DNA from: Escherichia coli
Lineage (GTDB): Bacteria; Pseudomonadota; Gammaproteobacteria; Enterobacterales; Enterobacteriaceae
NCBI RefSeq assembly: GCF_013122565.1
Contig: NZ_CP053258.1
Length of the DNA stretch: 64,000 bases
Direction: 5' to 3' (one strand)
Program-made: the position numbers and the translations under genes
In this document: positions 3,343 to 42,993 of the stretch, piece after piece
Position numbering within the stretch: the stretch's first letter is position 1
Layout: every line of letters starts with the position of its first letter
The notes under the pieces: generated by a model
Database searches by the model: none
What the model was told of the DNA's origin: nothing
Seen by the model: only the letters and a program-made list of their open reading frames with translations

Positions 3343-4376
3343 ACGAAACTCCCGCACTGGCACCCGATGGTCAGCCGTACCGACTGTTAACTTTGCGTAA
3401 CAACGCAGGGATGGTAGTCACGCTGATGGACTGGGGTGCGACTTTACTTTCAGCCCGTATTCCGCTTTCCGATGGCAGCGTCCGCGAGGCGCTGCTCGGC
3501 TGTGCCAGCCCGGAATGCTATCAGGATCAGGCCGCGTTTCTGGGGGCCTCTATTGGTCGTTATGCCAACCGTATCGCCAATAGCCGTTATACCTTTGACG
3601 GTGAAACCGTGACGCTTTCGCCAAGTCAGGGCGTTAACCAGCTGCACGGCGGCCCGGAAGGGTTCGACAAACGTCGCTGGCAGATTGTGAACCAGAACGA
3701 TCGTCAGGTGCTGTTTGCCCTGAGTTCAGATGATGGCGATCAGGGCTTCCCGGGTAATCTCGGCGCGACGGTGCAATATCGTCTGACCGACGATAACCGT
3801 ATCTCCATTACTTATCGCGCCACAGTTGATAAACCTTGCCCGGTGAATATGACTAATCACGTCTATTTCAATCTTGACGGCGAGCAGTCTGACGTGCGCA
3901 ATCACAAGTTGCAGATTCTGGCGGACGAATATCTTCCGGTTGATGAAGGCGGCATTCCGCACGACGGCCTGAAATCTGTCGCCGGAACGTCTTTTGATTT
4001 CCGCAGCGCCAAAATCATCGCCAGTGAGTTTCTTGCCGATGACGATCAGCGCAAAGTGAAAGGTTACGATCACGCGTTCTTGTTACAGGCCAAAGGCGAT
4101 GGCAAGAAAGTGGCGGCGCATGTCTGGTCAGCAGATGAAAAATTGCAGCTGAAGGTCTACACCACCGCTCCGGCTCTGCAATTCTACTCCGGCAACTTCC
4201 TTGGCGGCACACCGTCGCGGGGAACCGAACCTTACGCCGACTGGCAAGGGCTGGCTCTGGAAAGCGAGTTTCTGCCGGACAGCCCGAACCACCCTGAATG
4301 GCCGCAACCGGACTGCTTCCTGCGTCCTGGCGAAGAGTATTCCAGCCTGACGGAATATCAGTTTATTGCTGAGTAA
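3336..4376 (+). CDS. galM: aldose 1-epimerase (galactose mutarotase)
   Basis: 346 aa ORF overlapping the galK end by 7 nt; last gene of the gal operon. Confidence 0.93.
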
Positions 4377-10184: not shown

Positions 10185-10340
10185 AGATAGTCGAATGGTG
10201 GGGAAAAGTCACTCGAATTACGCCTAATGTGCAGGATGCGTCATTTTACGCCTAATTCTACCGACATAGAGTTGCTTGCACAGTAAGCTCTGACTATGTC
10301 ATCAGGTTTACAAAGTTAAATTGAGGGATGCCTGAATAGC

Positions 10341-10367
10341 AAAAAAGCGCCTTTAGGGCGCTTTTTT
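10341..10367 (-). terminator. rho-independent terminator at the 3' end of the lysT tRNA operon
   Basis: aaaaaagcgcc-tttag-ggcgctttttt: GC stem flanked by A- and T-runs, just 3' of the last tRNA on the minus strand. Confidence 0.75.
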
Positions 10368-10371
10368 ACAT

Positions 10372-10447
10372 TGGTGGGTCGTGCAGGATTCGAACCTGCG
10401 ACCAATTGATTAAAAGTCAACTGCTCTACCAACTGAGCTAACGACCC
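10372..10447 (-). tRNA. lysQ: tRNA-Lys (UUU)
   Basis: 76-nt exact copy of the tRNA-Lys sequence on the minus strand, CCA encoded, anticodon loop CUUUUAA. Confidence 0.9.
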
Positions 10448-10480
10448 CTTGCGGGATTATGCTGCTTTAATCATTCAGGA

Positions 10481-10556
10481 TGGTGGGTCGTGCAGGATTC
10501 GAACCTGCGACCAATTGATTAAAAGTCAACTGCTCTACCAACTGAGCTAACGACCC
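10481..10556 (-). tRNA. lysZ: tRNA-Lys (UUU)
   Basis: Identical 76-nt tRNA-Lys copy. Confidence 0.9.
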
Positions 10557-10604
10557 ATACGGGTGTTACCTGAAAGATTTCTACTCGGAACCAATCTTTA
10601 AAAT

Positions 10605-10702
10605 TGGTGGGTCGTGCAGGATGACTCGCTTCGCTCGCCCTACGGGCCGTTGCTGGCGCAACGTTATCCTTCACGCTTAACATCTGAGTTTGATGTTAAA
10701 AC
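10605..10702 (-). repeat. spacer repeat carrying a truncated tRNA-Lys 3' end (copy A)
   Basis: Starts with the 3'-terminal ~17 nt of tRNA-Lys (rc tggtgggtcgtgcagga) then diverges into a GC-rich ~80 bp unit; near-identical to the copy at 10909-11006. Confidence 0.6.
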
Positions 10703-10778
10703 TGGTGGGTCGTGCAGGATTCGAACCTGCGACCAATTGATTAAAAGTCAACTGCTCTACCAACTGAGCTAACGACCC
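10703..10778 (-). tRNA. lysY: tRNA-Lys (UUU)
   Basis: Identical 76-nt tRNA-Lys copy. Confidence 0.9.
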
Positions 10779-10781
10779 GAG

Positions 10782-10857
10782 TGGTGGGTGATGACGGGAT
10801 CGAACCGCCGACCCCCTCCTTGTAAGGGAGGTGCTCTCCCAGCTGAGCTAATCACCC
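10782..10857 (-). tRNA. valZ: tRNA-Val (UAC)
   Basis: 76-nt tRNA on the minus strand (rc gggtgattagctcagctgggagagcacctcccttacaagg...), anticodon UAC, CCA encoded. Confidence 0.9.
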
Positions 10858-10908
10858 GATACTGCGCTGGATACTACAAACTACTTCCACCGAACCCACC
10901 GTAATTAG

Positions 10909-11006
10909 TGGTGGGTCGTGCAGGATGACTCGCTTCGCTCGCCCTACGGGCCGTTGCTGACGCAACGTTATCCTACACGCTTAACATCTGTCTTCGATGT
11001 TAAAAT
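10909..11006 (-). repeat. spacer repeat carrying a truncated tRNA-Lys 3' end (copy B)
   Basis: Same structure as copy A with 3-4 substitutions. Confidence 0.6.
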
Positions 11007-11082
11007 TGGTGGGTCGTGCAGGATTCGAACCTGCGACCAATTGATTAAAAGTCAACTGCTCTACCAACTGAGCTAACGACCC
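11007..11082 (-). tRNA. lysW: tRNA-Lys (UUU)
   Basis: Identical 76-nt tRNA-Lys copy. Confidence 0.9.
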
Positions 11083-11084
11083 GG

Positions 11085-11160
11085 TGGTGGGTGATGACGG
11101 GATCGAACCGCCGACCCCCTCCTTGTAAGGGAGGTGCTCTCCCAGCTGAGCTAATCACCC
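11085..11160 (-). tRNA. valT: tRNA-Val (UAC)
   Basis: Identical 76-nt tRNA-Val copy. Confidence 0.9.
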
Positions 11161-11195
11161 GATACTACGCTGGATACTACAACTAACTATGTTAG

Positions 11196-11268
11196 TGGTG
11201 GGTCGTGCAGGATGACTCGACTTCGTCTCGCCCTTCGGGCCGTTGCTGACGCAACGTTATCCTTCACG
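11196..11268 (-). repeat. spacer repeat carrying a truncated tRNA-Lys 3' end (copy C, more diverged)
   Basis: Same tRNA-Lys 3' fragment followed by a related but more diverged GC-rich segment. Confidence 0.5.
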
Positions 11269-11295
11269 TTTTACTACCGCTTCCACCTTAGCGCT

Positions 11296-11371
11296 TGGTG
11301 GGTCGTGCAGGATTCGAACCTGCGACCAATTGATTAAAAGTCAACTGCTCTACCAACTGAGCTAACGACCC
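11296..11371 (-). tRNA. lysT: tRNA-Lys (UUU)
   Basis: Identical 76-nt tRNA-Lys copy; first gene of the operon on the minus strand. Confidence 0.9.
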
Positions 11372-11535
11372 ACTTTTTCGTTGCTTTCGGTTTGTTTGAT
11401 ATCCCGTGGCAACGGCGGCATATATTACTGATTTCAGACTTGAGCGCAACAAAAATTTCGATGTAGATCACTCAACTGCTTATGATTCGCACGACACGAC
11501 CAGAAATAATGCGACTTCTGGTCGTGTGTTATGCA

Positions 11536-12327
11536 TTACATCGCGTTCAGACGTTTTTGCGCCTGTTTAGCGCCATCAGTACCAGGGTATTTACTGATAA
11601 CCTGCTGGTATACGGCTTTCGCTTTTGCGGTGTCACCTTTGTCCTGCATGATGACGCCGACTTTAAACATCGCATCTGCAGCCTTTGGTGACTTCGGATA
11701 GTTTTTCACTACCGAAGCAAAATAGTACGCCGCATCATCTTTTTTACCCTTGTTGTAGTTTAACTGACCCAGCCAATAATTGGCGTTTGGCAGGTAAGTT
11801 GAATCAGGGTAATTTTTGATGAAATTCTGAAATGCCACCATTGCGTCATCCTGGCGGGATTTATCCTGCACCAGCGCAATAGCTGCATTGTAATCCGTGT
11901 TTGCATCGCCGCTTTTCACCGGCGCGCCAGCATTCGCAGTACCAGCATCAGCTGTCGGCGTCGTTGATGCCGCCGCACCGCTTTGATCACCGCTGGTTGA
12001 TTGCGCCGCTGCACCACCGCTGCTGAGGCTGTCGATCTGCAACAGGATCTGCTTTTGCCGCTCCACGACCTGATTCAGTTGATACTGATTTTCCTGAATC
12101 TGACCACGCAGGGAATCAATATCGGATTGATTATCAGAGAGTTGTTGCTGGAGTTGGGTTAAAAGCTGGCTGTGAGCATTAGAAATACGCTCAAGTTGAG
12201 TGACGCGGTCTTCGACCGAGCCTGAGCCGACACTACTGATTGGTGCCTGAGCAAAAGCGGCCCAGGGGGCCGCTATACCAACCAGTAACGACAGACTCAA
12301 TAGTTGATGTCTGAAGTTACTGCTCAT
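11536..12327 (-). CDS. cpoB: cell division coordinator CpoB (YbgF), periplasmic TPR protein
   Basis: 263 aa ORF with a signal peptide, Gln-rich coiled-coil N-domain and C-terminal TPR-like repeats; last gene of the tol-pal cluster. Confidence 0.9.
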   Translation of the reverse strand: MSSNFRHQLLSLSLLVGIAAPWAAFAQAPISSVGSGSVEDRVTQLERISNAHSQLLTQLQQQLSDNQSDIDSLRGQIQENQYQLNQVVERQKQILLQIDSLSSGGAAAQSTSGDQSGAAASTTPTADAGTANAGAPVKSGDANTDYNAAIALVQDKSRQDDAMVAFQNFIKNYPDSTYLPNANYWLGQLNYNKGKKDDAAYYFASVVKNYPKSPKAADAMFKVGVIMQDKGDTAKAKAVYQQVISKYPGTDGAKQAQKRLNAM

Positions 12328-12336
12328 GCAATTCTC

Positions 12337-12882
<546 letters not shown>

Positions 12883-38467: not shown

Positions 38468-38640
38468 CCCGTAGGCCTGATAAGACGCGTCAGCGTCGCA
38501 TCAGGCATCGCTTGTCGGATGCGGCGCGAGCGCCTTATCCGACCTACATCGGTGCTTCCCGTAGGCCTGATAAGACGCGTTAAGCGTCGCATCAGGCTTC
38601 AATGGCCGGAGAAGGCGATAATGCCTTATCCGGTCTACAG
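38468..38640. repeat. REP/BIME cluster in the sucB-sucC spacer
   Basis: Two tandem ~85 bp units each beginning cccgtaggcctgataagacgcg...gcgtcgcatcaggc, typical REP palindromes. Confidence 0.75.
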
Positions 38641-42872: not shown

Positions 42873-42993
42873 CGCCTGATGCGCTGCGCTTATCAGGCCT
42901 ACGGGTAATGACGTGTAGGCCGGATAAGGCGTTCACGCCGCATCCGGCACTGGTTGCCTGATAAGACGCTTGAGCGTCTTATCAGGCCTACGG
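42873..42993. repeat. REP/BIME cluster in the sdhB-sucA spacer
   Basis: gcctgatgcgctgcgcttatcaggcctacg ... gcctgataagacgcttgagcgtcttatcaggcctacg palindromic units. Confidence 0.75.

Follow-up and report, generated by a model that had tools for sequence, protein, structure and literature searches.

Three spacer repeats in the lysT tRNA operon of an Escherichia coli strain are short-form members of the RtT RNA family

Within a 64,000-nucleotide stretch of Escherichia coli contig NZ_CP053258.1 (assembly GCF_013122565.1; this whole stretch is referred to here as the window) lies the lysT operon with its seven tRNA genes, and three of the spacers between these genes carry the 3' end of a tRNA-Lys without the rest of the tRNA. 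What are these repeats? A first-pass annotation made from the letters alone had described three spacer repeats that start with the last ~17 nt of tRNA-Lys, two of them near-identical and one more diverged, and had offered two explanations, namely recombination scars of tRNA gene duplication or processed spacer RNAs with tRNA-like 3' ends. We find that the three repeats belong to an already catalogued RNA family, RtT (Rfam RF00391), which is named after the rtT RNA of the tyrT operon and which the first-pass annotation had not recognized, and that they are therefore a rediscovery rather than a new element. The reading that we prefer, at a probability of roughly 0.7 for its parts taken together, is that they are short-variant RtT modules, i.e. 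structured spacer elements that would be excised in the course of tRNA processing with a tRNA-like 3' end, and that recombine as direct repeats. RtT RNA was reportedly first seen in 1991, and an article by Rudd (Res Microbiol, 1999) is said to describe RtT repeats in several tRNA operons; in the literature we found no paper treating the lysT-operon spacers as RtT.

The extent of the repetition is readily seen from the 18-mer TGGTGGGTCGTGCAGGAT, the reverse complement of the tRNA-Lys 3' end with its CCA; the window contains it eight times, where shuffled sequences give an expectation of 0.00. Five of these occurrences are tRNA genes and the three extra ones lie in the spacers that follow lysT, lysW and lysY (copies A, B and C, respectively; Table 1). 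On the minus strand, each unit begins at the base following tRNA-Lys and includes a G+C-rich core (G+C 0.60–0.63) of 71–73 nt closed by the last 18 nt of tRNA-Lys including the CCA, AUCCUGCACGACCCACCA, exact in all three copies; between the end of the tRNA and the repeated 3' end there are 80–82 nt. Beyond this tRNA fragment the copies have another 53–55 nt in common. Core identity is 97% between B and C and 94.5% between A and either of them (96% and 93% when the 18-nt tail is left out). As whole units B and C are 94% identical, both with a 9-bp hairpin on the 5' side directly after the tRNA, and copy A is the more diverged one, mainly in the 27 nt upstream of the core. A repeat finder recovers the same three-member family. 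Both the position of the repeats and their division into two near-identical copies and one diverged copy were thus described correctly in the first-pass annotation, with a tRNA fragment that measures 18 nt; the span 10605–11268 runs from the CCA end of copy C through the first base of the copy A shared segment.

All three copies score above the RF00391 gathering score of 45 bits, and they are the only RtT matches in the window. Our own covariance model, R1, gives units A, B and C 50.8 (E=1.2e-9), 43.6 and 44.5 bits. On folding, the same units have minimum free energies (MFE) of -35.5, -38.7 and -32.7 kcal/mol and z scores of -3.05, -5.03 and -3.52. The conserved core ACGRCCCGNAGGGYGAG...CGARUNAUCC is present in each copy together with three hairpins, P2, P3 and P4, and a closing helix, P1; the 5' domain of the full-length form, with hairpins Pa (GAACC..GGUUC) and Pb (CUCGAG..CGAGAG), is absent. 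In K-12 there are five RtT matches in the lysT operon and four at tyrT, the type locus, where they score 133–137 bits. The K-12 tyrT record annotates a non-coding RNA, rttR, and a small open reading frame (ORF), tpr, and the annotated 3' end of rttR (position 2067 of the K-12 tyrT locus) is the last A of the pseudo-CCA in the first RtT copy after tyrV. The RefSeq/PGAP label 'RtT sRNA, processed from tyrT transcript' is placed, in other strains of E. coli, on the free-standing copy after lysQ, and the three internal copies carry no RefSeq/PGAP annotation despite passing the Rfam threshold, probably because their Rfam matches overlap tRNA genes. For the window itself, the outcome is one of correct labelling, with three unannotated spacers joining a catalogued RNA family. 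We also considered whether the repeats could be tRNA genes or pseudogenes and rejected this, as ARAGORN and the Rfam tRNA model return just the seven genes, and the repeats contain the last 18 nt of a tRNA and no cloverleaf.

The correspondence with the tyrT rtT RNA is close: a tRNA gene lies directly upstream, the core is the same and is present in repeated copies above the Rfam gathering threshold, the element ends in the last 18–19 nt of the cognate tRNA including CCA, and a closing helix joins the 5' arm to the tRNA-derived strand. There are four differences. First, the tail in the window copies is that of tRNA-Lys, not tRNA-Tyr. Secondly, the 130-nt tyrT form has two hairpins, GAACC...GGUUC and CUCGAG...CGAGAG, that are missing from their 71–73-nt cores. 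Thirdly, they lie between tRNA genes rather than after the last one. Fourthly, release as an RNA is documented at tyrT and is presumed for the copies described here.

The RtT core extends well beyond E. coli. A scan of GTDB with one genome per species, using the motif ACGRCCCGNAGGGYGA-N5-20-GARUNAUCC for which by our own estimate about one chance match is expected, returned at least 120 stretches; here and below, results for other genomes are among the matches listed. These fall in many Enterobacterales, and in Orbales, Alteromonadales, Oceanospirillales, Thioalkalivibrio, Xanthomonadales, Nevskiales and others, and include Gilliamella, Alteromonas, Salinimonas, Marinobacterium, Amphritea, Neptuniibacter, Tahibacter, Xanthomonadaceae, the SAR92 clade and a metagenome-assembled genome (MAG) of Mariprofundus. 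Together with the window and K-12 loci the set comprises at least 175 cores, 147 of which have an identifiable tRNA gene upstream on the same strand, and in 129 of these 147 the 14 nt after AUCC are the 3' end of that upstream tRNA. The cognate tRNAs are Lys-UUU, Tyr-GUA, Arg-ACG, Arg-CCG, Pro-CGG, Pro-UGG, Ser and Gln. Judged from these alignments, RtT is one conserved core capped by whichever tRNA precedes it. Since the core is common to Lys, Tyr, Arg, Pro, Ser and Gln tRNAs, local duplication of tRNA-Lys cannot give the pattern. The Mariprofundus cores, on two contigs of ~2.3 kb each from a zetaproteobacterial MAG, are RtT-like, and if they do not reflect binning contamination the family reaches beyond the Gammaproteobacteria.

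The distribution also provides the variation from which a fold can be assessed. When 48 non-redundant long-form units were folded segment by segment, hairpins were found at fixed places with stems varying in sequence, and six helices were defined: P1, formed by the 5' arm and the AUCC/tRNA strand; Pa, GAACC..GGUUC; Pb, with the variants CUCGAG..CGAGAG, CUAACACGC..GCGUGUUAG and CCGGUGGCGC..GCGACACCGG; P2, either CGUUGCC..GGCAACG or CGUCACC..GGUGACG; P3, CCC-GNA-GGG; and P4, with the variants GCCAC..GUGGC, GGAGC..GCUCC and GCAU..AUGC. Pb and P4 share an architecture in which a C-G pair is followed by tandem G.A and then by the stem. A covariance model was built from 43 long-form units, and 136 matches from 88 loci were re-aligned. 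Over the 131 distinct sequences 85.3% of the cells are paired, compared to 72.6% in column shuffles and 30–44% in registers slid by 1–3 columns, changes on both sides are seen in 34 of the 41 pairs, and the covariation score is 0.294 compared to 0.04–0.06 in slid registers; none of 500 shuffles attains the observed pairing or covariation values. The compensatory changes are thus abundant and support the predicted fold. This fold departs from the RF00391 consensus structure, in which P4 is absent and the CCCGAAGGGCG and GGUUCGA segments are paired with each other, and the 131-sequence variation is fitted better by local hairpins (Pa, Pb, P2, P3 and P4) with two C-GA-G...C-GA-G motifs. The consensus that RNAalifold derived from a plain MAFFT alignment was poor (-6.8 kcal/mol), the stems being thrown out of register by indels in the loops of the hairpins, and this was superseded by the hand-defined structure, the covariance model and the re-alignment.

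The substitutions also bear on the suggestion that the element encodes a small basic peptide similar to Tpr, which is annotated as a 'protamine-like protein' inside the tyrT RtT. K-12 does annotate tpr within rttR, and ORFs across the lysine cores read ...RQQRPVGRAKR..., resembling RRQRPEGR in Tpr. However, these ORFs begin with TTG or GTG inside P2, are 20–54 amino acids long and differ in frame and length among the three copies, and the substitutions are compensatory in stems rather than codon-like. The resemblance to Tpr follows from a homologous core read in one frame, so that the ORFs are probably a by-product of the shared core, and we consider a peptide-coding role to be highly improbable. 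TTG-initiated short ORFs lie over the RtT cores on the minus strand at 10581–10661, 10852–10965 and 11192–11254.

The lysine copies in the window have a short form, in which the P1 arm CGUGNAGGAU leads straight to P2, P3 and P4. The same form is found in the Lys spacers of Citrobacter, Pluralibacter, Pseudescherichia and others, and in tRNA-Arg(ACG) arrays. On the window the long-form model misassigns the 3' end of the upstream tRNA as the P1 arm, and a separate short-form alignment (A3) was therefore built, with 27 sequences including the window copies. In this alignment 86% of the cells are paired compared to 29–45% in slid registers, the P1 column pair 11/75 is G-C in the Arg class and U-A in the Lys class, P4 is represented by several pair types, and a Serratia oryzae tRNA-Arg tail with a C-to-U change is accompanied by a matching G-to-A change in its arm. 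P1 is a helix of 10 bp in the window copies, with ACCCACCA left unpaired, and it is perfect in copy B, where it includes one U.G pair; in copy A the arm CGUGAAGGAU forms nine of ten pairs with the tail AUCCUGCACG. The closing helix is present in the predicted fold of all three cores (MFE -28.5, -30.5 and -25.3 kcal/mol, with z scores of -3.8, -3.6 and -1.9, for A, B and C), and the z scores of whole units range from -3.0 to -5.0. Neither unanchored duplex energies between the 5' region of a unit and cognate or non-cognate tails, nor refolding with swapped tails, discriminated between them, the cognate tail being best in only a few classes, since tails rich in G+C (Arg-CCG, Pro) find many G-rich segments to pair with; reliance was placed on anchored pair counts and on comparison with the reverse-complemented tRNA. 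The tRNA-Arg(ACG) arrays, one in Enterobacter sp. Bisph1 (locus positions 700–1960) and one at an E. coli locus, have a short-form RtT after each gene, with a tail that is the tRNA-Arg 3' end and a complementary arm, GCACCAGGGAGGAU, the same design as in the lysine copies.

Comparison with K-12 shows that RtT units come and go. The lysZ-lysQ spacer is 132 nt in K-12 and 33 nt in the window, and the 99 nt by which they differ correspond exactly to one RtT unit with the 18-nt repeat at its bounds. Downstream of lysQ, K-12 has a terminator, an RtT and the same terminator again as a 54-nt direct repeat, where the window has a single terminator. The breakpoints between the two strains coincide exactly with the 18-nt and 54-nt direct repeats (window 10448–10480 and 10341–10371; K-12 locus 3446–3577 and 3654–3845). 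Of 5426 complete E. coli genomes, 1996 (37%) have the lysZ-lysQ copy and 3075 (57%) the post-lysQ copy. Units are thus gained and lost polymorphically at repeat boundaries, and the repeats are therefore active recombination substrates. They account for differences in tRNA-operon spacer length among E. coli strains, which matters for assembly and typing. A larger event is also apparent, the block of valT, lysW and its spacer and that of valZ, lysY and its spacer forming a 304-bp tandem duplication with 93% identity.

These observations lend themselves to a neutral explanation, in which unequal crossing-over of tandem tRNA-Lys genes left 3' fragments with junk spacer and the similarity of the copies reflects recent duplication. 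The 304-bp duplication and the turnover of units at repeat boundaries are what this would produce, as are the end-of-operon copies of other taxa, which are parts of tandem duplications that include the terminator. It does not, however, account for a non-tRNA core that has homologues in distant orders, behind five other tRNA species, and that is common to different tRNA ends, nor for stems that keep pairing through many double substitutions while loops vary. The neutral explanation is thus largely refuted, and we give it little chance. Of the recombination scars proposed in the first-pass annotation, what stands is that the repeats recombine and the units are polymorphic; as a complete account the proposal is inadequate, given the core behind other tRNAs and the covariation.

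The long forms offer a clue to the origin of the module. Their 5' arm and the Pa 5' strand resemble, in reverse complement, the 28 nt that precede NCCA in the cognate tRNA (e.g. UGGGGGACUGGGAUGAGAACCUCAGG vs UGGGGGACUAGGAUUCGAACCUAGG for Gln and GUCGUGCGGAUUUGAACCUGCG vs GUCGUGCAGGAUUCGAACCUGCG for Lys), with alignment scores of 11.8–18 for cognate and 7.8–11.9 for non-cognate tRNAs. The Pa 3' strand is a direct GGUUCGA, and since GGUUCGA precedes the core and AUCC follows it, the core occupies the place of the T-loop. In sequence, RtT looks like a snap-back copy of the 3' part of a tRNA with a foreign structured core in its loop. End-of-operon copies (the Lys long form, Pro, Ser, Gln and Tyr) usually lie beyond the tRNA terminator, with a direct repeat that continues through a second terminator, a layout that fits tandem duplication plus conversion against the neighbouring gene. 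The tail would be kept cognate by conversion against the adjacent tRNA, after which pairing of the arm would be restored.

A tRNA gene followed by a repeat of its own 3' end raises the question of site-specific integration, as tRNA-targeting integrases leave attL/attR duplications of the tRNA 3' end. An intact tRNA gene, an insert and a distant direct repeat of the 3' end starting in the T-loop make up the classic tyrosine-recombinase footprint, and the RtT loci could be miniature attL/attR pairs of this kind. Alternatively they could be remnants of a small mobile element resembling a miniature inverted-repeat transposable element; the long forms, beginning with the reverse complement of the cognate tRNA's 3' 28 nt, have inverted ends, and copy number is variable and distribution wide. 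However, the insert is only ~55–150 nt, placing the repeats ~80 nt and not kilobases apart, there is no integrase nearby, and the conserved structured core is common to different tRNAs. The inverted arm and the tail vary with the tRNA species, so that they are not fixed element ends, the core sits inside the would-be T-loop (from GGUUCGA to AUCC) where an att site would have an uninterrupted T-arm, and G.U pairs are present on the transcribed strand. Finally, the core is found in only 7 of 2.9 million viral contigs, several near a contig end, and RtT is therefore not phage-borne. An integrated element with tRNA-derived att repeats was rejected for the window, which has no recombinase gene at the locus and cpoB and nadA as neighbours, and we regard integration or a mobile element as quite unlikely in general.

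If RtT is a module of the transcript, its fate depends on how the operon is processed. In K-12 the lysT operon is a single transcript from which RNase P is needed to free the tRNAs, cutting at the tRNA 5' ends while RNase E cuts within these spacers, and Northern probes placed in the spacers detect precursors in RNase P and RNase E mutants (PMC4176162). We propose that each RtT module is transcribed within the polycistronic precursor right after tRNA-Lys, where the copy of the T-stem and acceptor 3' strand would pair with the arm to form P1, enclosing P2, P3 and P4 and leaving the tRNA-like end single-stranded. With RNase P cutting where the next tRNA begins and RNase E cutting in the A/U-rich spacer, each RtT would be left on a fragment with 35–51 nt past its CCA, and 3' exonucleases would probably trim this to a tRNA-like helix-plus-CCA end, as the rttR annotation implies for tyrT. 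The expected product is a discrete RNA of ~70–100 nt, like the tyrT rtT RNA, ending ...GAGUCAUCCUGCACGACCCACCA. Such an RNA could be told from tRNA-Lys by the junction GAGUC|AUCC, which sets RtT apart, and it contains the invariant segment ACGGCCCGNAGGGCGAG. In the DNA, the 18-nt ends, which are identical, and the nearly identical cores serve as direct repeats through which whole units are gained and lost. In Actinobacillus pleuropneumoniae, RtT members beside tRNA-Lys and tRNA-Asn genes give Northern signals, and one of them, Arrc21, beside tRNA-Lys, is conserved across the Pasteurellaceae (PMC4986893).

If RtT RNA has a function in trans, its anatomy points to an acceptor-arm mimic of the cognate tRNA that engages or competes for tRNA-end enzymes, and we favour this over a base-pairing regulator because the molecule is nearly all helical and its only free strand is the tRNA-like end. 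There are precedents, with acceptor-T minihelices serving as model substrates of RNase P, the CCA-adding enzyme and some synthetases, and with viral 3' tRNA-like structures and mascRNA as further tRNA-like structures. RtT resembles these in having a continuous helix that copies the stacked T-stem and acceptor 3' strand and is followed by a single-stranded NCCA, and in the Gln and Arg classes, for instance, this helix extends as far as the last acceptor base, with a 4-nt overhang. It differs in that a three-hairpin domain replaces the 'T-loop', and in the window copies the 10-bp helix leaves an overhang of 8 nt. A more ambitious version, which we regard as doubtful, is that RtT is a class-wide non-coding RNA with a six-helix core that differs from the Rfam fold and a tRNA-end mimic, acting as an isoacceptor-specific decoy or sensor for tRNA-end factors such as RNase P, 3' exonucleases, the CCA-adding enzyme, stringent-response signalling or acceptor-stem-cleaving toxins. 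An effect on the stringent response, suggested in older work, is taken up again in recent papers, and the authors of a 2024 preprint describe the mode of action as unknown.

Spacers of tRNA operons can also give rise to RNAs that act by base pairing, among them the internal spacers of the metZWV operon, and RtT could accordingly be a trans-acting RNA or sponge, probably working with Hfq. The model here is 3'ETS-leuZ (Lalaouna et al. 2015, as cited in bioRxiv 10.1101/2025.09.11.675593), a by-product of tRNA-operon processing that likewise persists as an RNA with its own function as a sponge. RtT members are detectable RNAs in A. pleuropneumoniae, for which targets have been predicted computationally (PMC4986893). 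Spacer-derived regulators of this type, however, pair with RyhB or RybB on Hfq by means of short single-stranded seeds, whereas RtT is almost wholly helical with a tRNA-like end. Its conservation lies in helices and junction motifs rather than in an accessible seed, the one long stretch that it leaves single-stranded, ACCCACCA, comes from the tRNA and varies from one tRNA class to another, and we found no partner or interaction data in the literature. A sponge is thus unlikely, if less so than a mobile element, and the acceptor-arm mimic is the reading of function that we retain.

Several observations weigh against our overall reading, or against parts of it. First, the Rfam alignment draws on the body of the upstream tRNA-Lys for model positions 1–56, and the spacer of unit C alone scores 41.6 bits (E=2e-7), below the gathering score of 45. 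Secondly, the long-form alignment (A2) was fitted to the model structure and so favours it, and P3 and its flanking motifs were fixed by the search pattern, so that the invariance of P3 says little. Thirdly, the window copies depart from the complete structure: they are without Pa and Pb, P4 is down to about two pairs in B and C, P1 contains one A.G mismatch each in A and C, and the 3' overhang is 8 nt, compared to 4 nt in a tRNA. Complementarity in P1 and Pa could, moreover, stem partly from the inverted copy of the tRNA 3' end rather than from selection on the RNA, and many of the end-of-operon copies in other taxa lie beyond the terminator. Individual units are dispensable, the strain studied here being without two of those in K-12. 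Finally, in wild-type K-12 there are few processing intermediates and no discrete stable spacer species was reported (PMC4176162), and the lysine RtTs may be unstable, short-lived by-products. The processed spacer RNAs with tRNA-like 3' ends of the first-pass annotation thus agree with the family and with the 3' end of rttR on a pseudo-CCA, and they find no counterpart in the wild-type Northern blots.

As a family, RtT lies behind several tRNA species across the Gammaproteobacteria, with clear structural selection and a 3' end that tracks the neighbouring tRNA. The cognate-tail rule, a helix map backed by covariation, long and short variants and natural presence/absence alleles in E. coli provide a starting point for experiments.

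The organization of the operon is summarized in Table 1. ARAGORN reports seven minus-strand tRNA genes between 10372 and 11371, five Lys-UUU and two Val-UAC, in the order Lys, Val, Lys, Val, Lys, Lys, Lys (window 10300–11460), which equals that of the K-12 lysT operon. The 1151-bp operon stretch is 99.0% identical to many E. coli chromosomes, and it is flanked as in all E. coli by cpoB, with pal and tolB beyond, on one side and by nadA-pnuC on the other.

Table 1. Positions of tRNA genes, RtT units and their parts in the lysT operon of the window
Feature	Coordinates	Strand	Basis or description
tRNA-Lys(UUU), first operon gene, lysT position	11296–11371	-	ARAGORN; Rfam tRNA 79.2 bits; K-12 gene order
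RtT unit A, lysT-valT spacer from tRNA-Lys end to pseudo-CCA	11196–11295	-	Rfam RtT 60.6 bits
Core A (73 nt)	11196–11268	-	
Copy A P1 5' arm, CGUGAAGGAU	11259–11268	-	MFE and centroid structures; pair counts, short-form alignment A3
Copy A P2 hairpin, CGUUGC-GUCA-GCAACG	11241–11256	-	Folding, pair counts; family-wide covarying helix
Copy A P3 hairpin, CCC-GAA-GGG	11231–11239	-	Folding, pair counts
Copy A P4 region, CGAG-ACGAAGU-CGAG	11216–11230	-	C-G pair, tandem G.A, then GAC/GUC; strong family covariation
Copy A tail, last 18 nt of tRNA-Lys	11196–11213	-	18-mer match
tRNA-Val(UAC), valT position	11085–11160	-	ARAGORN
tRNA-Lys(UUU), lysW position	11007–11082	-	ARAGORN
RtT unit B, lysW-valZ spacer, 5' hairpin UUAACAUC...GAUGUUAA, then core	10909–11006	-	Rfam RtT 54.9 bits
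Core B (71 nt)	10909–10979	-	
Copy B P1 arm	10970–10979	-	
Copy B P2	10952–10967	-	
Copy B P3	10942–10950	-	
Copy B P4 region	10929–10941	-	
Copy B tail	10909–10926	-	18-mer match
tRNA-Val(UAC), valZ position	10782–10857	-	ARAGORN
tRNA-Lys(UUU), lysY position	10703–10778	-	ARAGORN
RtT unit C, lysY-lysZ spacer, 5' hairpin, then core	10605–10702	-	Rfam RtT 54.4 bits
Core C (71 nt)	10605–10675	-	
Copy C P1 arm	10666–10675	-	
Copy C P2	10648–10663	-	
Copy C P3	10638–10646	-	
Copy C P4 region	10625–10637	-	
Copy C tail	10605–10622	-	18-mer match
tRNA-Lys(UUU), lysZ position	10481–10556	-	ARAGORN
lysZ-lysQ spacer (33 nt), without RtT	10448–10480	-	Sequence comparison with K-12
tRNA-Lys(UUU), lysQ position	10372–10447	-	ARAGORN
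Operon terminator A6-GCGCC-CUAAA-GGCGC-U6, single copy	10341–10367	-	Read from sequence

A scan with consensus promoter and terminator patterns found no promoter and missed the lysQ terminator; its two matches are P2 hairpins read on the wrong strand, at chance level. A match to the YrlA/Y RNA-like family (RF02553) at 10396–10536 on the minus strand was rejected as a real YrlA, as its 44 bits are below the gathering score of 69. It extends from the 3' part of lysZ across the 33-nt spacer into the 5' part of lysQ, away from the RtT repeats, and arises because a pair of adjacent tRNAs mimics the model. At the pal-cpoB junction, upstream of the tRNA operon, the CpoB/ybgF intercistronic RNA thermometer (RF02782) is present at full length (12298–12436, minus strand; 142 bits, gathering score 51). 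Elsewhere in the window there are two matches to naRNA4 (RF02564), a nucleoid-associated non-coding RNA, at 42918–42988 on the plus strand (83.5 bits) and at 38474–38544 on the minus strand (74 bits).

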